In this document: positions 4,571 to 13,934 of the stretch, piece after piece
Numbering within the stretch: the stretch's first letter is position 1
How the letters are laid out: each line of letters begins with the position of its first letter
From: a virus
Taxonomy: Duplodnaviria > Caudoviricetes
IMG/VR virus record: IMGVR_UViG_3300029775_000298
Reading direction: 5' to 3' (one strand)
Length of the DNA: 25,999 nt
The notes under the pieces: generated by a model
What the model was told of the DNA's origin: nothing
The model's input: the letters and a program-made list of their open reading frames with translations, nothing else
The model's database searches: none
Translations under genes and position numbers: made by a program

Positions 4571-4933
4571 ATGGAACAATTCAACACATTGCTGAAGGCG
4601 GCGGAATGCGCCGTAACACGCTGTAATAGCTGGAACTTTGCCACTTCTAATGATAGATACGACGTAAAAGGCTTGCTGGTGCTTGCCAAGACAAGCGACA
4701 GTGAAAATCCCATCGACGAGGACAGCTTTTATGTGGTATCGCCTGCCGGAGCCATCGGTTTATGCGAGGATGGAGAGGACATTGACTGGCTGTTTCTGAC
4801 AGGCTCCAGTACAGATGAGGATTTACCCGCCACGCTTCAGACTGCTTCACAAATCAAATTCTGCTCGAAATGTGGAAACGGGGTTATTCTGGGCGCTCGC
4901 TTTTGCGGAGCCTGCGGCGTGAAACTTAATTAG
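4571..4933 (+). CDS. Zinc-ribbon domain protein
   Basis: RBS AAGGAGG; C-terminal FCSKCG...FCGACG. Confidence 0.8.
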   Translation: MEQFNTLLKAAECAVTRCNSWNFATSNDRYDVKGLLVLAKTSDSENPIDEDSFYVVSPAGAIGLCEDGEDIDWLFLTGSSTDEDLPATLQTASQIKFCSKCGNGVILGARFCGACGVKLN

Positions 4934-5010
4934 AAACACGGAAGAACCGTTATAGACCAGAATAACGAAATAAATACAGCCAAATGCAAACCCATCAAAA
5001 GGTGGGACAC

Positions 5011-5044
5011 AAAGCCTGCCCTCTCTCATGGGGGCGGGCTTTTG
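5011..5044 (+). terminator. Intrinsic terminator of the lipoprotein/zinc-ribbon operon
   Basis: aaagcctgccct / ggggcgggcttt GC-rich stem followed by T-rich tract. Confidence 0.7.
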
Positions 5045-5217
5045 CGGTTTTTAAGGGATGATTCAGGCGACATAATACCAGCTTTTGCAACTCTCTGTGA
5101 AAAAAGGGTACTCCTATAAGCATTGTTTTCTGTTTTTATTTCTTTGCGAGGTGGAAATAAAGACGGTGCAGTCCATATATACCGCCTTCTAACAATACAA
5201 TTTTATAGTGCTCTTAT

Positions 5218-5262
5218 AAAAAAGTCAGTATTTTGCCAGGAGTGAAATACTAACTTTTTTTT
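5218..5262. repeat. Inverted repeat (operator or bidirectional terminator)
   Basis: aaaaaagtcagtattt (5218-5233) / aaatactaactttttt (5245-5260), one mismatch. Confidence 0.5.
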
Positions 5263-5431
5263 CGCGAAGAAAACCTATGGAACGACCGTTTTCCAGAAAC
5301 AGGGAGAACCAGTGTCAAACAGTAAACCATCAGCTGCAGGAACCTTCACATTCGATTGAAACCCCAAAAAAAGATTGAAAAAATAAAAATATTTTTTGTA
5401 GACCCCCTCACGAAACCGGATTAGTAGTGAG

Positions 5432-5464
5432 GGGGTTATTTATACCCCAATTGTTCTTTGAAAA
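5432..5464 (+). promoter_or_regulatory. boxB-like hairpin plus boxA-like antitermination signal
   Basis: ggggt...acccc hairpin at 5432-5448, then TGTTCTTTGAAAA at 5452-5464, matching the Firmicute rrn boxA consensus. Confidence 0.5.
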
Positions 5465-5474
5465 CTTCATATCC

Positions 5475-5845
5475 GATAACCTAAATACTTTAGCTGACGG
5501 TGCTTTAAAAGGCAAAGCGACTTCCGAGGATGCGCCAAGACCACCTGTAGGATTTTAATGGGAAAATGAAACTACTATCTATCTTTTTTCTTTTCTGTTT
5601 TGTTAATTTCTTCCCATTTATAAACCTATCAAAGACGGCCAAATAAGGTGCTAAGCGGTACCCATCCGACGGTCAAACAGGCTGTAGCAGTCTGTTTCGC
5701 AATAATCCCGTCAGCCTATAATGATACTTCTGTCCAGTCACAGCCCCCCTTAAATGGGGGATCACGCAATGAGGGCAGTCGGCGGAGATCCCGGCGAGGG
5801 TGAAAGTCCCATGATGCGGTATAGCTAACCGCAGTTTAGGTTATT
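5475..5845 (+). ncRNA. Putative large structured non-coding RNA / leader (~370 nt)
   Basis: No ORF of 60 aa or more; nested helices 5475-5486/5834-5845, 5493-5500/5708-5715, ggatg/catcc, cacct/aggtg, aatgggaa/ttcccatt; local hairpins including GGG-TGAAAGT-CCC; G-U wobbles favour the + strand. Confidence 0.7.
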
Positions 5846-5910
5846 GCCATTAGTGCTTGGGAAGTAGTGTCGAATTAAGCACATAGAAAAAAACTTAATG
5901 TCAGAAGCCA

Positions 5911-5968
5911 TGCAAACCGCTCTGTATACGTAAACAGAGTAATCACAAGCAGAGCGGTTTGTATTTTT
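5911..5968 (+). terminator. Terminator-like hairpin immediately upstream of mazF
   Basis: tgcaaaccgctctgt / gcagagcggtttgta ~15-bp stem, large loop, then ttttt. Confidence 0.55.
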
Positions 5969-6001
5969 GTGCCATTAAGCAGATAAAAGGAGGTGAACAT
6001 T

Positions 6002-6379
6002 TTGCAGGAACAAAAAAGAATTATAAGACGTGGAGATGTTTTCTATGCTGATTTAAGTCCAGTTGTGGGCTGTGAGCAGGGTGGTATCCGACCCGTGCTT
6101 ATTATACAGAATGATATAGGAAACCGTTACAGCCCCACGGTCATTGTCGTAGCTATAACCAGCAAGCTTAAAAAGGAGCTGCCCACTCATGTGGAAATTG
6201 GGTGTATGGAGCCGTTACAGAAAAATTCGGTGGTACTGCTGGAGCAGATACGCACTATTGATCGCATCCGGCTTTTGGAATACATAGGAAGCCTAAGTGA
6301 GTTGCGGATGATTTCAATTGACCAGGCATTGTCTCTTAGTTTAGGGCTAACAACGGCTAAAGTTATACGGGCAAAATAA
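6002..6379 (+). CDS. mazF: MazF/PemK family endoribonuclease toxin (NdoA-like)
   Basis: [33 protein letters not shown]...AITS...LLEQIRTID signature; RBS AAGGAGGTG supports a TTG start at 6002. Confidence 0.92.
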
Positions 6380-6428
6380 TGCGATTATGAAAAGGAAAAA
6401 TCACATTAGATACAGGGAGGATATATTT

Positions 6429-6590
6429 ATGTCAAAGGAACAAACAGCTAATGAAGTAAAATATAAAATCACATTGAAGTACTTGGGAATTCTGCTTCGT
6501 AACGGCCTAATAACCAATGAAGAATATGAAGAAATCGATGCTTTGAACCGCCAGACCTTTCTTCCCCAACTTGCAAAAGTATATGTGTAA
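6429..6590 (+). CDS. Small SHOCT-like protein associated with serine recombinase modules
   Basis: RBS GGGAGG; LLRNGLITNEEYEEI SHOCT-like motif; directly upstream of the recombinases. Confidence 0.7.
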   Translation: MSKEQTANEVKYKITLKYLGILLRNGLITNEEYEEIDALNRQTFLPQLAKVYV

Positions 6591-6670
6591 TAACAGTAGC
6601 TATTCTAAAACTTGTGTGGTAATGTGTGTTGCTAACAGAGGAAAAATCTGTTAGAAAGGAGGAAACGATC

Positions 6671-8341
6671 ATGGCGGGCAAGCAGAAAAAAGTAAAAAAG
6701 ATAACAAAAATAAACCCTGTAAAACCTCAGGTAATGATGCAGCTTCAGCCTACAAAACGCGTCTGCGCCTACTGCCGTGTCAGTACGGATTCCAGAGAAC
6801 AACAGAATTCATTTATTGCACAGACAGCCTATTACGAAGAACTGATTAGCAAAAGAAGTGATTGGCAGTATGTCGGAGTTTATGCGGATGAAGCACGAAG
6901 TGGAACGAAGCTGCAAAAAAGAGATGACTTTTTGCGCATGATAAAAGATTGTGAAGCAGGAAAAATAGATATGATCATCACAAAATCGGTAACCCGCTTT
7001 GCAAGAAATACCGTTGACAGTATAAAGGCAATCCGTAAGCTAAAACTGCTTGGCATTGCAGTGTTTTTCGAGAAAGAAAATATCAACACCTTATTCGAAA
7101 GCAGTGAGATGCTCTTGACCATCTTAAGCTCTCTGGCACAAGGAGAGGCAGAAAGCATTTCAACCAACAATAAATGGGCAGCAATTAAACGGTTTCAAGA
7201 CGGCAGCTTTAAAATAGGAACACCCGCCCTCGGATATATTAAAGATGGAGGGGGTGAGCTGGTTATTGATGAACAGGAGGCAGAAACCGTCCGCTATATT
7301 TTCAAACAGTATTTAAACGGCAAAGGCTCCTATGTTATTGCAAGGGAATTGACTGAGAAAGGAACACAAACCATTCGAGGCGCTGAAAAATGGTCAGATG
7401 GAGTGATAAAGGAAATTCTTCTTAACCCAATCTATACAGGAAACTTAATATTGCAAAAGACATTTACTACTGAGGTAATCCCCTTCAAGCGAAAAAGAAA
7501 TAAGGGTGAGCTACCTCAGTATTTTATTTCTGAGAATCATGAACCCATCATCAGTGCGGAGGAAGCGGAAGCGGTTAAGGAAATTTATGAATACCGTCGT
7601 AAGCAGATGAAAACTGATACTACAAAATCGCTGAACAGATATGCTTACAGCAGTAAGATTATATGCGGGGAATGCGGAAAGGTGTTTAGAAGGCAGAAAA
7701 TTTATATCGGGAAGACTTATGAGAAAGTGCAATGGTCTTGTATCCAGCATATCGAGGATAAAGAAAAATGCAGTATGGTAGCAATTAGGGAGGATATTAT
7801 ACAAGAAGCATTTACCCTGATGTGGAATAAGCTCTCCGGCAATTACCTGGAAATCCTTTCTCCCATGCTGGAATCCTTACGAAAGTTGCGTGCAGATGAA
7901 CAGCAGGAAAAGGACATCAGAGAGTGTAATGAAAAAATAATGGAACTGTCGAAGCAGAGTCATATCTTAAGCGGTGTAGCTGCAAAGGGATATCTTGACT
8001 CTGCTATTTTTATAGAGAAACAGACTGCCCTGCAAATAGAGTTGGATGCCATGCGAAAAAAGAGGAAAGCCCTGCTTGATGACAGTGGGTTTGAAACAGA
8101 GATTTTTTATACTGAACAGCTTATAGGACTGTTGGAAAACAATCCGGGGATACAGGATACATACCGTGAGGATTTGTTTTTAGAAACAGTGGATCAGATT
8201 ATTATAAAGGAAGGAAAGACTGTAACCTTCCGACTAAAGAATATGCTGGAATTTTCAGAAGCCTGTGGAAAGGAGGATAACAAAGATGCAAAGACATACA
8301 CCGATAGGGTTCCGGATGCGAAACGGAAAGATATATGTTGA
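6671..8341 (+). CDS. Large serine recombinase 1 (resolvase + recombinase + zinc ribbon)
   Basis: AYCRVST catalytic motif, KSVTRFARN, CGECG...C...C zinc ribbon, coiled coil; RBS AAGGAGG before ATG 6671. Confidence 0.93.
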   Translation: MAGKQKKVKKITKINPVKPQVMMQLQPTKRVCAYCRVSTDSREQQNSFIAQTAYYEELISKRSDWQYVGVYADEARSGTKLQKRDDFLRMIKDCEAGKIDMIITKSVTRFARNTVDSIKAIRKLKLLGIAVFFEKENINTLFESSEMLLTILSSLAQGEAESISTNNKWAAIKRFQDGSFKIGTPALGYIKDGGGELVIDEQEAETVRYIFKQYLNGKGSYVIARELTEKGTQTIRGAEKWSDGVIKEILLNPIYTGNLILQKTFTTEVIPFKRKRNKGELPQYFISENHEPIISAEEAEAVKEIYEYRRKQMKTDTTKSLNRYAYSSKIICGECGKVFRRQKIYIGKTYEKVQWSCIQHIEDKEKCSMVAIREDIIQEAFTLMWNKLSGNYLEILSPMLESLRKLRADEQQEKDIRECNEKIMELSKQSHILSGVAAKGYLDSAIFIEKQTALQIELDAMRKKRKALLDDSGFETEIFYTEQLIGLLENNPGIQDTYREDLFLETVDQIIIKEGKTVTFRLKNMLEFSEACGKEDNKDAKTYTDRVPDAKRKDIC

Positions 8342-9209
8342 AGAAGAAAAAGCAAAGGTAGTAAGAAAGGTTTTTGTTGATTATCTTTCGGGGCTCTCTA
8401 CCTATGCAATAGCAAAGGAACTTACAGCAAAGGGATTTCCAAATGCAAACAACAAACCATCCTGGAACCATGGCTCTGTCGGCAAGATTTTAGAAAACAT
8501 AAAGTATTTGGGCGATGAGATGTATCCGCAGATGATAGAAACGGAAATTTTTGAACAGGTACAGAACCGAAGGCAAGAGCAACGTAAAAAACTCGGAAGG
8601 GTTATGCAGCCAAATAGCATGAACAATCAAAGCTCATTCAGTGGCAGACTTTGGTGCGGCGAGTGCGGAGAGGTATTCAGAAAATATATAGAGAATAGTG
8701 GCAAACCCTCTGAAAAAAGCAAATGGAAGTGCAAGCATTATATTTATAAAAACAGAGTTCATTGCAACTGTGGGGTAATTACAGATGAACAGATCAAAGA
8801 AGTTTTTATTCTTGCGGTAAACAAGGTAATAAGAACTCCTTCTTTGCTGCAGAAAAAACAAAGAGAGATTCCAAAGTGTTATTCACCAGAATTTCGGAAG
8901 CTTGATCAAAAGATTAAAGACATGGAAGCAGACGAACAATTTTCCTCCAAAGAGCTGGCGACGATGATTTTCCAAAGGGCAGCACTCCTTTATCAAACTG
9001 CACAGGTGCATGACTACGAACATCATACGAAAAACATAATGCAAGCCCTTTCAGGCAGGGAACAGCAAACCGAATTTAATGAAGAATTATTTTTACAGAC
9101 AGTCAAAAAACTGGTCATCTATAAAGATGGACGAGTTGAAATAGAATTTATTAATGGACTGATTGTCCATGAAACTTATAGAAAGGGGGATAAATATGCA
9201 AGCAGTTAA
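8286..9209 (+). CDS. Recombinase-family protein lacking the catalytic resolvase domain
   Basis: Starts at PIGFR, the recombinase DNA-binding domain; ILENIKYLG; CGECG zinc ribbon; no YxRVST motif; RBS AAGGAGG. Confidence 0.88.
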   Translation: MQRHTPIGFRMRNGKIYVEEEKAKVVRKVFVDYLSGLSTYAIAKELTAKGFPNANNKPSWNHGSVGKILENIKYLGDEMYPQMIETEIFEQVQNRRQEQRKKLGRVMQPNSMNNQSSFSGRLWCGECGEVFRKYIENSGKPSEKSKWKCKHYIYKNRVHCNCGVITDEQIKEVFILAVNKVIRTPSLLQKKQREIPKCYSPEFRKLDQKIKDMEADEQFSSKELATMIFQRAALLYQTAQVHDYEHHTKNIMQALSGREQQTEFNEELFLQTVKKLVIYKDGRVEIEFINGLIVHETYRKGDKYASS

Positions 9210-10842
9210 AAAGAAAAATGTATCTATCATACCTTCACAACCAGCATATGACAGGAGCATCAAGGTACAGTTAAAAGCATTAAGGGTTGCAGCTTACTGT
9301 AGAGTCAGCACTTTGCTGGAACAGCAGGAAAGCAGTTACGATGCTCAGATATCTTATTATACAGAGAAAATTCAGCAGAATCCAAACTGGAAACTGGCGG
9401 GCATTTACGCAGATGACGGGAAGTCTGCAACCAATATGAAAAAAAGAGATGACTTTAACTCCATGATTGATGACTGCATGGCAGGAAAAATCGACTTAAT
9501 ATTGACTAAATCAGTCAGCCGTTTTGCAAGAAATACAGTAGACTCCCTGCAAACCATAAGAAAACTGAAGGAGAAAAATATCGGCATCATTTTTGAAAAG
9601 GAAGGCATCAATACACTGGAGGCGACAGGCGAACTTTTAATCACCATCTTAAGCAGCCAAGCACAAGAAGAAAGCCGTAACTTAAGTGAAAACACACGCT
9701 GGGGAATCGCAAGAAAATATGAAAATGGTGTAGTGCTAGTCAATCACAAAAAGTTTTTAGGATACACAAAAGATGAGGATGGCGAGCTGGTCATCGTACC
9801 GGAACAAGCGAAGCTTGTCAGAAGAATCTATCGTCTTTATCTTGAGGGGCTTAGCACACAGCAGATAGCGAATACCTTTATGGAAGAAGGTATCAAGACA
9901 GTGACTGGAAAGGATAAATGGCATGATACTGTCATCGCAAAGATACTCCAGAACGAAAAATACATGGGCGATGTACTGCAACAAAAGACATATACGGTGG
10001 ATTTTCTTACAAAAAAGAGGGTAAAAAATGACGGCATCGTGCCTCAGTATTATATTGAGGATAACCATGAAGCAATTATCCCAAAGGAGCTTTTTTACCA
10101 AGTGCAAGAAGAAAGAGCAAGACGAGCAAGCCTTCATAAGCCGTCCATTGCCAGGCGAGCTAAAAAAGAAAAAAGTAAGTACAGTTCTAAATATGTACTC
10201 TCAGACATTCTTGTCTGCGGAGAATGCTCCCACCCTTATCGCAGGCAGACCTGGTCAAGGAATGGAAATCTTACTCCCGTGTGGCGATGTGAAAGCAGAT
10301 TATTAAATGGAACAAAAAAATGCAAGCATTCCGCCACCTTGAAAGAAAAACCCCTACAGGAAGCAATTATGAAGGCTGTGGATAGTGTAGTTGAAAATCA
10401 AAGGGAGCTTGTAGGAGCATTCAGGGAGAATGTGATCCGGGTGATCGGTAACTACACAACAAAAAACATAAAAACAGAGTTTGATGAGGAAATTAACAAA
10501 CTGCAAAAGCAGCTCCTTAACTTAATCGAAGAAAATGCAAAGCAAGGAGCCGTCAATGAAGATTTTGATGAGCAGTATAGAAAAATTGCAGAAGAAATAC
10601 AATCCCTTAAGATGAAAAAATTAAAGCAGGCAAGGGAACAGAAGTTGGCCGATGATTATGAGCAAAGGGTGGATGGAATGGACTCTTGCCTTGGCAGGGT
10701 AAGCTGCAGGGTCGGAGAGTTTGATGAGGATTTAATCAGACGCTTGATACTTAGAATCAAGGTAATAAATGAATCCAAAATTGAAATTCACTTTAAATAT
10801 GGCATCATTATGGAACAAGAGATTGAGTTTTATGAAGATTAA
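9196..10842 (+). CDS. Large serine recombinase 3
   Basis: AAYCRVST, KSVSRFARN, AQEESRNLSEN, ILQNEKYMGD, CGEC zinc ribbon. Confidence 0.93.
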   Translation: MQAVKKKNVSIIPSQPAYDRSIKVQLKALRVAAYCRVSTLLEQQESSYDAQISYYTEKIQQNPNWKLAGIYADDGKSATNMKKRDDFNSMIDDCMAGKIDLILTKSVSRFARNTVDSLQTIRKLKEKNIGIIFEKEGINTLEATGELLITILSSQAQEESRNLSENTRWGIARKYENGVVLVNHKKFLGYTKDEDGELVIVPEQAKLVRRIYRLYLEGLSTQQIANTFMEEGIKTVTGKDKWHDTVIAKILQNEKYMGDVLQQKTYTVDFLTKKRVKNDGIVPQYYIEDNHEAIIPKELFYQVQEERARRASLHKPSIARRAKKEKSKYSSKYVLSDILVCGECSHPYRRQTWSRNGNLTPVWRCESRLLNGTKKCKHSATLKEKPLQEAIMKAVDSVVENQRELVGAFRENVIRVIGNYTTKNIKTEFDEEINKLQKQLLNLIEENAKQGAVNEDFDEQYRKIAEEIQSLKMKKLKQAREQKLADDYEQRVDGMDSCLGRVSCRVGEFDEDLIRRLILRIKVINESKIEIHFKYGIIMEQEIEFYED

Positions 10843-10887
10843 TACGATGATGAAGGCCTTAATGGATGCTCCGGTGTGTAGAATTAG

Positions 10888-10912
10888 GCAGGGGTGGGGT
10901 TCCCACTCCTGC
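10888..10912 (+). terminator. GC-rich hairpin after the recombinase operon
   Basis: gcaggggtggg-gtt-cccactcctgc; no immediate U-tract. Confidence 0.45.
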
Positions 10913-10914
10913 TG

Positions 10915-10970
10915 AAAACTACTAAGACTAAAATCCTCGGTCCGCTGAGGGTTTTACTGTTAGTAGTTTT
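10915..10970 (+). repeat. Imperfect palindrome, copy 1
   Basis: aaaactactaa-gac-taaaatcctcgg-tccg-ctgagggtttta-ctg-ttagtagtttt; near-identical copy at 13087-13144. Confidence 0.85.
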
Positions 10971-11161
10971 TTCTTTACAAATAATACATCGAGATATGGT
11001 AATTATTGTGTTATAATTAATATGGAAATAGTGTAATAAGATTTATCCGTTATAGATTTCAATAAAGCAATTGCGGACATTATCTTTAGAATATTGATTT
11101 AATTTTAGTCAAATAAGTTGCGATAATTGTCATTACAGGTGCAAAACTATGAGGTGGAAAA

Positions 11162-12112
11162 ATGGGATTATTTGATATATTCAAAAAGAAAACCAAAGAA
11201 AGGAGTTTAGTACCCACAGCACAGGAAGCGTTATTAAAGCAGACAGCTACTATACCTGATTCAGAGAAGAAATATTATCAGCCGGATTCCTATTATAAGG
11301 CAAAATCACACGATGGAACACCTTTTGAAAGTGAAGTAGTATCTTTTGAACAGAGGAAAAATACGTCTATTCCATCTAATAACGGATTGTACGTTCCTGA
11401 AATCTTGATGCTTCATTTTTGTAAGAAATATCCTAATCCCAAGGGAGGATACCCCGGGTATTGGTGGTATAAATATGGCATTCGGGATGTAGGTTCTGTT
11501 TATGAATCCTTAGTGGATCGTGGTTTCCTAATTATTAATGATAAAACAGGTAAATACGAGCTTACAAATCTCGGTAAAACTGAACTTGAAGAGAATGCAT
11601 ATGTACCGTATATGCACCGTCACAGCAAATATACTACATTTACCGTATGGGATTTGAATCAATTGTTAGGCACTGGAAATAAAAGCAATTATATGGAAAT
11701 CATAGAGAAAAAATATGCTGATATTGATAACGGAAATGAAGATAGCAATAAGTCTTTCATGAAAGAATTGAAAGTGATTGATCCGGAAGGTTATAGGTTG
11801 TTGAAAAGTCAGGACAAGCAGATAAAAGCTGTTCAGGCTACTGATGAGAAGTATGCTGAAGATAAAGATATTGATTGGATTATCAACTTTTGGGAGGAAA
11901 TATGGAAGGATGGTGGTCCCAAGTTTGAAGGCTCTGGATGGATGTTCAGGCTGCCGGATTTGTACATCAAGGCCAAAAGATATGATGATGCTATAGCCAT
12001 TGTGCAAAAAATAAAGAAAACCAAGGGGTCTTACTATTTAAATAAGGCTAACAGCTATATTACCAAAATCGAGGAACGCAGAGCAAAGGAAGCTACAAAG
12101 AAAATTAAGTAA
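11162..12112 (+). CDS. Hypothetical protein (MGLFD N-terminus, winged-helix-like segment, TPR-like C-terminus)
   Basis: RBS GAGGTGG; SLVDRGFL..YELTNLG wHTH-like pattern; LYIKAKRYDDAI TPR-like pattern. Confidence 0.75.
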   Translation: MGLFDIFKKKTKERSLVPTAQEALLKQTATIPDSEKKYYQPDSYYKAKSHDGTPFESEVVSFEQRKNTSIPSNNGLYVPEILMLHFCKKYPNPKGGYPGYWWYKYGIRDVGSVYESLVDRGFLIINDKTGKYELTNLGKTELEENAYVPYMHRHSKYTTFTVWDLNQLLGTGNKSNYMEIIEKKYADIDNGNEDSNKSFMKELKVIDPEGYRLLKSQDKQIKAVQATDEKYAEDKDIDWIINFWEEIWKDGGPKFEGSGWMFRLPDLYIKAKRYDDAIAIVQKIKKTKGSYYLNKANSYITKIEERRAKEATKKIK

Positions 12113-12136
12113 TGTGGTGCAAGAAATAAAGGAGGT

Positions 12137-12817
12137 GTGCCGACTATGATGATAAGTCCAGAAAACTATTGTGAAGAGTATCTAAGAGAAAAGGATGCTA
12201 AGCAAATCTTATCCATTATCCGTGGATTAAAAAACGAAATGGGTCATTTAAAGAATATCATGGAACATCCGGATTATGGCACTGAGTCAAAAGTGTGCCC
12301 AAGTGAATCAGTCAGATTATCGTGCACCCGTGAATACCTTGAACGAGCAAAACAGGCACTTGTCGAAGTGGGCGGCACCTACAACCCTTCGCGAACGGAA
12401 CTTCGCACATTGGATTTTATAAGCAATGTTAACCATATCAGCAAGTTTACATTTTCCATTGGAGGATTCTTCGGTGGATATAATACATACATTGCTGACT
12501 TATCTGGCAATGAACTAAAATTTGAATCAAAACAAGGAGAGGCTTCAACACCGATGAAGGTTTTCAATAAAGAGGGTGAGCCTCTGACAAAGGAAAGTTT
12601 TCTCGAAGGAATTCGAAAGCTGCATATGGGAGAATGGAAGAGAAGCTATTCCCCGGAGCGTTTTGGCCACATGGTTTTAGACGGTACACAATGGGAAATT
12701 GAAATTGAATATGACAACGGACACAGGAAGGTTCGTTTTGATGGGGATAATTCTTATCCATACAATTTCTTCGATTTGCAGGCTTTGTTTGGTGTCGAGG
12801 AAGATTGTGAGAACTAG
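12137..12817 (+). CDS. Hypothetical protein
   Basis: RBS AAGGAGGTG (start may be ATG 12146 or 12149); C-terminal VLDGTQWEIEI..GDNSYPYNF motif. Confidence 0.75.
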   Translation: MPTMMISPENYCEEYLREKDAKQILSIIRGLKNEMGHLKNIMEHPDYGTESKVCPSESVRLSCTREYLERAKQALVEVGGTYNPSRTELRTLDFISNVNHISKFTFSIGGFFGGYNTYIADLSGNELKFESKQGEASTPMKVFNKEGEPLTKESFLEGIRKLHMGEWKRSYSPERFGHMVLDGTQWEIEIEYDNGHRKVRFDGDNSYPYNFFDLQALFGVEEDCEN

Positions 12818-12902
12818 TTATTAATTTGAAACAGTGTCATCAATAAAGGTTAATAACGAGTTCGATGATTGTGATGAAATCAACGGAAGGGAGTGTGAGA
12901 AA

Positions 12903-13067
12903 ATGCAAATGTGTGGGAACTGCATGAAAGTTTATGATGAATCTGAATATGCAAAATGCCCGTTTTGCTCTAATGACAAAGATGAATATACGCATGTTAT
13001 AGTTTTTGATAAAGATGCTGGTGTGGCAAAATCAGTACCAAAGAAAGATGCACATCTTTATGAATGA
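12903..13067 (+). CDS. Small zinc-finger protein
   Basis: CGNC...CPFC; RBS-like GGGAG before ATG 12903. Confidence 0.55.
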   Translation: MQMCGNCMKVYDESEYAKCPFCSNDKDEYTHVIVFDKDAGVAKSVPKKDAHLYE

Positions 13068-13086
13068 ACAATTAGTTGGTTGTATT

Positions 13087-13144
13087 AAAAACTGCTAAGA
13101 CTAAAACCTTCAGTGCTCTGAGGGTTTTATTGTTGGCAGCTTTT
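13087..13144 (+). repeat. Imperfect palindrome, copy 2
   Basis: aaaaactgctaa-gac-taaaaccttcag-tgct-ctgagggtttta-ttg-ttggcagctttt. Confidence 0.85.
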
Positions 13145-13301
13145 ATCTTTGTTAAATCAAATGTCAAAAACAAGAGTTGCCATGTTATAATTAGCAAAAC
13201 TATTTTGTAAAAACAAGTGTTTAGCGCTGGAGTTATTGGAAATATACCCTGACGCCAAGGGGGTACCAGGCCCGATGGTCATCAGAATTGCAGCAACAAG
13301 G

Positions 13302-13343
13302 CACGTTGAGTGCGTGGTATTGATGTCGAGGGTAGAGAAATAA
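13302..13343 (+). other. rlmD: Orphan 3' end of rlmD/rumA (23S rRNA m5U methyltransferase); att-site junction
   Basis: cac gtt gag tgc gtg gta ttg atg tcg agg gta gag aaa taa = HVECVVLMSRVEK*, the RlmD C-terminal HVE motif with no upstream gene body; known hotspot for serine-recombinase elements. Confidence 0.8.
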
Positions 13344-13613: not shown

Positions 13614-13808
13614 ATGGCTGATTCATATATTTACTTAGATACATATGTGTTGCAGCAAGATATGAGAGTTCGCTTGCCTAAAGCCATTCTTTCGAATATG
13701 AAAGTAGAAAAAGGTAAAACAAAATTTGATATATATCTGGATTCTTCTGACGATTCATTGCTTTTGCGCATTCACAATGATGAAGGCGGAGGTTCAAATA
13801 ATGAATAA
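13614..13808 (+). CDS. AbrB/MazE/SpoVT-like small DNA-binding protein, probable R-M controller
   Basis: RBS GAGGAGG; LQQDMRVRLPKAIL swapped-hairpin-like motif; overlaps the start of the methyltransferase. Confidence 0.7.
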   Translation: MADSYIYLDTYVLQQDMRVRLPKAILSNMKVEKGKTKFDIYLDSSDDSLLLRIHNDEGGGSNNE

Positions 13809-13926
13809 AGAATATTCTGCTGTATCTTTGTTTACCGGTGCGGGAGGCATGGATATTGGCTTTGAAAGGGCAGGCATTAAAGCTGTATTCGCAAATGAAT
13901 TGATGAAAGAGGCTGCAGAAACATAG
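13801..13926 (+). pseudogene. Truncated DNA (cytosine-5)-methyltransferase
   Basis: RBS GGAGG; SLFTGAGGMDIGFERAG..VFANE = motifs I-II; stop after 41 aa; no PCQ catalytic motif seen downstream. Confidence 0.85.
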
Positions 13927-13934
13927 AAAGCAAC

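Follow-up and report, generated by a model that had tools for sequence, protein, structure and literature searches.

The RNA canT of Tn916 is, in the available text of its description, a cis-acting, orientation-specific and processive antiterminator with which several intrinsic terminators are passed (PMC11658703, Wirachman and Grossman 2024). Its 452-nt active clone spans +126..+577 after the orf8 stop, and shorter clones are likewise active. Activity is lost upon S3, a 3-bp change at +283, or upon the 162-bp deletion of +229..+390, while a 400-nt clone is insensitive to S3. Furthermore, canT acts on heterologous terminators and does not complement in trans. In the part of PMC11658703 that is available, boxA, pemK, Rfam and covariation are not mentioned, and the folds are single-sequence folds only.

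Two other systems are relevant here. In B. subtilis rrn leaders a hairpin precedes boxA, and the rrn boxA consensus binds NusB (PMC13753749, in part). For the antiterminator conAn, the accessible text of PMC8191782 describes that the RNA alone works at short range and that a protein is needed for distance. Long stems resist conAn read-through, as far as the accessible part of PMC10325885 goes.

We analysed a linear 26-kb DNA record which is filed as viral and 11% complete; the window is this whole stretch of 25,999 nt. It contains an element of about 400 bases in a gene-free stretch. We propose, with a probability of roughly 80%, that its RNA is a cis-acting processive antiterminator of the canT family, belonging to an integrated mobile element. 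The conserved fold, the homology and the position near one end of the element were observed here, while read-through is published for canT alone. The parts of the RNA are as follows.

5432..5448, + strand: short hairpin directly 5' of the boxA-like site, arranged as in B. subtilis rrn leaders
5452..5465, + strand: boxA-like sequence, a candidate NusB:S10 site by family counts and by its resemblance to the B. subtilis consensus and host rrn leaders
5475..5845, + strand: main structured RNA, by fold and covariation, with closing helix P1 (5475-5486/5834-5845, two G-U pairs)
5493..5715, + strand: domain 1 with closing helix 5493-5500/5708-5715, a homologue of the 5' half of Tn916 canT
5718..5814, + strand: Rfam pemK motif RF02913 (68.7 bits, cut-off 34.8), the mutationally defined core of canT
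5798-5810: T-loop hairpin within the core
5815-5833: hairpin between the core and the 3' strand of P1
5853..5882, + strand: hairpin of the 3' extension, confined to the window's subgroup; its AGUA/GAA internal loop is conserved
5894..5979, + strand: long terminator-like hairpin of the 3' extension; a short U-run comes after its inner stem (5910-5964)

The first-pass annotation had described a nested fold in a gap without open reading frames of 60 aa or more. The gap is real for 5030-5992, and a 60-aa minus-strand frame (4847-5029) touches its left edge. RNAfold gave -117.2 kcal/mol for the + strand of 5475-5845 (z = -4.0), and none of 100 shuffles was equally stable. The minus strand folded more weakly (z = -2.9). 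The predicted structure was close to the one drawn by eye, and all claimed helices were found in place, including P1 with its two G-U pairs. The exception was the register of the GAGA hairpin, where TCG.CGG/CCG.CGA is conserved and not the gtcgg/ccggc that had been given. The limits 5475 and 5845 hold for the main fold, but the element starts at 5452 with the boxA-like site, and the window's subgroup adds two conserved hairpins which extend it to about 5979. These 3' hairpins (5853-5979) show double changes in 10 of 34 pairs and are conserved in 10 window-like sequences; the AGUA/GAA loop is, we presume, reminiscent of the loop-E motif. Two parts are variable inserts: the AU-rich arm of domain 1 (about 5552-5624) and the helix ccccc/ggggg.

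Relatives were collected by scans with a core pattern, which found 8 and 10 viral loci and at least 120 genome loci. The window and three loci from plasmids were added; of the 142 loci, 131 had enough flanking sequence and formed 26 families among the matches listed, the largest with 71 of the listed loci. The core is set by the pattern itself, and the features that count as tests are therefore those outside it. For pair counts, 15 window-like sequences were aligned on sequence alone. With the slightly corrected first-pass structure, double-sided changes were present in 53 of 78 pairs, a count which cannot be read as a probability because the 15 sequences share kinship. Pairing cells made up 93.5% in these relatives, compared to 33-42% when the partners were slid by 1-3 columns. 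RNAalifold, run independently on the same alignment, predicted 74 pairs with double changes in 49, to be read with the same reserve about kinship; on a 30-sequence alignment it recovered the core alone. G-U cells outnumbered A-C cells (81 vs 35), which favours an RNA from the + strand.

A helix-level duplex test, made without column alignment, covered 23 families among the matches listed. Three loci were left out as they had no boxA anchor: L053, which is probably a true family member (domain-1 profile 12.3 bits), and L043 and L095, which look like pattern-only matches. In the 23 listed families, the strands of P1 paired with their own partners at a mean of -15.0 kcal/mol and with foreign ones at -6.9 kcal/mol; for P2 the means were -12.6 and -5.5 kcal/mol. 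The own duplex was the best in its row in 16/23 families for P1 and in 16/23 for P2, whereas mismatched-helix controls reached 0/23 and 1/23. The closing helices show covariation over these 23 families, and the fold in 5475-5845 is that of a real RNA. The proposal of a large conserved structured RNA was borne out.

The sole Rfam match in the window was RF02913, with the full model aligned (positions 1-61). This motif reportedly originates from Weinberg et al. 2017. The word pemK is absent from the available main text of PMC5737381, and the supplement may describe the motif further. The core is already catalogued, but the 61-position model spans only about a quarter of the element.

The comparison with Tn916 was made on L142, the Tn916-type locus of pCF10 with the gene order orf7-orf8-xis-int. 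There, the S3 site at +283 reads ATA, as it does in the window, and the pemK motif starts at this very base. The three bases changed in S3 open the motif, and the deletion of +229..+390 takes out the entire motif. A profile of boxA and domain 1 was built from 14 sequences, excluding the window's family and Tn916. It matched the window at 5452-5708 with 71.0 bits and L142 with 36.6 bits, in both over model positions 1-159 of 167. L142 also folds into eight corresponding helices (56/56 pairs) at -72.8 kcal/mol, compared to its optimum of -76.7 kcal/mol. These matches and helices indicate that the whole element is canT-like, in the core and beyond, and by this sequence comparison it is homologous to canT over boxA, domain 1 and core. 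Three loci (L003, L011 and L072) keep boxA, P1 and the core but differ in domain 1, where the profile matches boxA and nothing further; xis-integrase genes lie downstream of them. L010:826-1070 is a minimal member, about 245 nt long, and an actin-like partition gene takes the place of the recombinase after it.

The pattern G..C.TTGA[AC]AA, placed 105-285 nt upstream of the core, was present in 22 of the 26 families among the matches listed, whereas among 1228 control windows it turned up in 5. It was composed after the sites had been seen and is partly circular, and the checks on it are the control windows and the rrn leaders. In five host genomes, the strict pattern occurred in 7/17 rrn leaders and a looser one in 15/17, and nusB was found in all five. 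A hairpin ends at most 6 nt before the boxA-like site in 27 of the 29 sequences folded. A weight matrix made from host rrn leaders was uninformative, as it rested on one training site (4/26 vs 1/74 at the lowest cut-off). A reading as a -35 box of sigma-70 was also considered. In no family did a -10 box score above 4 of 6 at 16-18 nt, which makes this reading unlikely.

In the coordinates of L142, the boxA-like site occupies +119..+133 after the orf8 stop. Since the active 452-nt canT clone starts only at +126, 7 nt are missing from the 5' end of the site. Activity with half of the site argues against a strict need for it at short range. On the analogy of the protein in conAn, boxA might serve distance. 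We suggest, tentatively, that NusB is involved at this site.

The surroundings of the RNA in the window contain the following features.

5011..5042, + strand: terminator-like hairpin which ends the upstream cargo genes
5148..5304, + strand: upstream region left from a lost sigma70-r4-like gene; an inverted repeat lies within it at 5218-5260
5308..5385, + strand: 3' remnant of an orf7-like sigma70-r4 gene, with about 450 bp missing and the last 25 codons left
5402..5436, + strand: spaced inverted repeat; the same motif type lies 84 nt before orf7 in L142
5993..6379, + strand: PemK/MazF-family endoribonuclease gene (PF02452; EndoA/MazF structures at E 1e-37 to 1e-40)
6387..6590, + strand: SHOCT_2 small protein (PF20612)
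6626..10842, + strand: three large serine recombinase genes (6626-8341, 8265-9209, 9163-10842)
10915..10976, + strand: long-stem terminator-like hairpin with U-tract, 3' of the recombinases; second copy at 13088-13150
13293..13343, + strand: probable right attachment site, an orphan 3' tail of a rumA-type methyltransferase gene

The region 5148-5304 shares 74.5% identity with the DNA that precedes the sigma-like gene of L049 and L093 and is a probable promoter/operator region. The sigma remnant was recognised by tblastn (52% over 25 aa with the stop, E 0.021), and its DNA is 80-84% identical to L021 and L051. The same deletion is seen in L074, whose recombinases differ. The repeat at 5402-5436 is possibly the element promoter or a terminator-like fold. 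The MazF protein is close to B. subtilis EndoA, and no antitoxin gene was seen beside pemK among the window's reading frames. The middle recombinase had no resolvase-domain match in the domain search. The hairpins at 10915-10976 and 13088-13150 are 82% identical and flank a variable cargo slot.

The orphan tail at 13293-13343 reads like the RumA C-termini of L165-L167. According to the accessible text of PMC4701971, serine-integrase elements are known to target rumA; in streptococci this gene goes with single integrases, while triplets are found at other genes. Past 13343, the DNA looks like a second, phage-like element in tandem (Rha, VapE helicase); by eye, 13805-13930 reads like a stop-interrupted start of a cytosine methyltransferase. 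There are no conjugation genes within the window, and the far end of the element lies outside this record. With the sigma-like gene lost as well, the window copy may be decayed.

Flanking genes were examined in 20 families among the matches listed; of the remaining families, four had 300-nt flanks only and two were probable pattern-only matches. An excisionase-like or recombinase gene lay at most three genes downstream in 17 of these 20 listed families, and a sigma70-r4 (orf7-like) gene or its remnant lay upstream in 14/20. The first-pass statement that similar sequence lies before xis and recombinase genes in other Firmicute elements, and the coupling of the RNA to excision and integration genes, were both supported by these neighbourhoods. 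pemK was downstream in 9/20 of the listed families, directly 3' in eight besides the window. As pemK is an optional neighbour, the name of the motif is misleading.

The closest full-length relative (G007, loci L160-L163) is 91% identical over 5366-11082, and its similarity to the window stops at 13310, where the orphan RumA-like tail begins. In the 56 of its 68 reading frames scanned, genes for a MobL relaxase, a coupling protein, a VirB4-like ATPase, TrbL and a pilus were found at its far end, co-directional with the RNA. The record of G007 calls it a complete provirus, whereas its gene content, read from sequence, is that of a conjugative element, arranged with the geometry of Tn916. The canT-like arrangement (orf7-like gene, recombination genes and a co-directional transfer operon) is present in G007, while the window has the sigma remnant only. 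The pilus of G007 is of the Tad type, and restriction-modification genes are part of its cargo. In its cargo slot, which matches 10915-13150, lie genes for KAP NTPase, QueC and TatD, a set we take to be Qat-like defence.

In the antitermination model, transcription would start at a promoter upstream of the RNA and pass through it. The nascent RNA would fold and remain on RNA polymerase, and host NusB:S10 on the boxA-like site would probably help it to hold the enzyme. The polymerase would become terminator-resistant and ignore the hairpins at 5910, 10915 and 13088, so that pemK, SHOCT and the recombinases would be expressed by the modified enzyme. After excision, transcription would cross the attachment site and reach the transfer operon, which lies at the opposite end of the element, and expression of the transfer genes would thereby be coupled to excision. 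The stems at 10915 and 13088 are longer than 20 bp, a length which counts against read-through there. Terminator-like hairpins directly 3' of the RNA were not enriched (8/23 families among the matches listed vs 8/23 on the reverse strand).

The lambda nut site is part of a boxA-type antitermination system with NusB:S10. It is conceivable that the folded RNA with its hairpin-boxA is an RNA-encoded counterpart of lambda N/nut, in which NusB:S10 is loaded and a folded RNA with the T-loop core replaces N; no N-like protein was seen with the window RNA. On the same reading, canT could perhaps belong to a family of RNAs of 240-400 nt which is widespread in the mobile elements of Firmicutes, a view we hold with some reserve. 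That intrinsic terminators are passed over tens of kilobases is likewise a tentative suggestion. If true, NusB of Gram-positive bacteria would have a role beyond rRNA operons.

Four of the 22 listed RNA-library runs were examined. In one library, a 417-nt contig covers 5453-5869 with one difference, and in a second one from the same study a contig covers 5255-5909. The contigs reveal neither ends, strand nor level and are a weak hint only. Runs X3 and X1 had cover in all 30 bins and may contain DNA; in X9 pemK was without cover, which carries no evidential weight.

The best of the other explanations, which we still consider unlikely, is a local leader, attenuator or riboswitch-like, serving only pemK, SHOCT and the recombinases by a switch at 5894-5979 or by access to the ribosome binding site. 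The subgroup-conserved 3' hairpins between the RNA and pemK would fit it, as would the cis-regulatory class of the pemK RNA in Rfam. However, these hairpins are missing in Tn916-type loci and in most other families among the matches listed, and canT acts on heterologous terminators (PMC11658703, available text).

Quite improbable is a stand-alone, trans-acting stable RNA, or an inactive relic in a decayed element. The 417-nt contig and the deletion of the sigma-like gene in the window and in L074 point in this direction; however, every conserved motif is intact, both short contigs come from one study with the limits given above, and canT failed to complement in trans in the accessible part of PMC11658703.

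Very improbable, too, is an RNA antitoxin of a type III-like kind, or a decoy, for the orphan MazF, a role considered in the first-pass annotation. It would account for a pemK without an adjoining antitoxin gene and for a library contig spanning the RNA alone. Nevertheless, pemK is downstream in only 9/20 of the listed families, L056, a locus near the window, has the RNA and the 3' hairpins but not pemK, and the window has no tandem repeat array as expected of type III, which leaves the neutralisation of MazF unsupported.

Least probable is a ribozyme or a group II intron-derived domain which processes the transcript: size, multi-way junctions, invariant unpaired motifs and the T-loop hairpin beside a group II D1-D4 match in L043 speak for it, but boxA and domain 1 are both missing at the L043 locus, Rfam gave no match to introns or ribozymes in 5200-6100 at E <= 10 (besides pemK, nothing came near its threshold), the domain search gave no reverse transcriptase gene nearby, and the fold is explained by homology to canT, so that the proposed self-processing and group II origin are not upheld.

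Antiterminators of the canT kind and the Rfam pemK family are already known, and the window copy, taken as canT-type, is one more such RNA. Our literature searches did not find in print that Rfam pemK is the core of canT, nor a covariation-backed secondary structure of the canT family with clear ends, nor the boxA-like site at its start. They returned no work on the function of the pemK RNA, judged from titles and the beginnings of abstracts, and nothing on boxA antitermination in Firmicute conjugative elements. The structure and the boxA model pinpoint mutations: compensatory pairs in P1 and P2, boxA, and deletion of nusB. Control of the canT type would extend past Tn916 to serine-recombinase elements.

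Among known systems, conAn2/ConAn1 of pLS20, in the available text of PMC8191782, is likewise a cis-acting RNA antiterminator, with conAn2 serving conjugation operons, and the EAR and HK022 put RNAs cited there are cis-acting RNA antiterminators too. The window had no Rfam match to conAn2, EAR or put, and no ConAn1-like partner was identified for the window RNA. With the rrn boxA/NusB:S10 system the window RNA shares a 5'-end hairpin followed by a boxA-like sequence, but here this site heads a 370-nt folded RNA. Read-through was measured for Tn916 canT; for the window RNA it is predicted. The window RNA is about 100 nt longer, with an extra hairpin and the AU-rich arm, and has two extra 3' hairpins; pemK, SHOCT and three serine recombinases, not xis-int, lie downstream, and the sigma-like gene is deleted. 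Nevertheless, the window RNA and Tn916 canT share the homologous boxA-like site, the closing helix, domain 1 and the core, and both are placed before recombination genes, with an orf7-like sigma gene ahead of canT and the remnant of one ahead of the window RNA.
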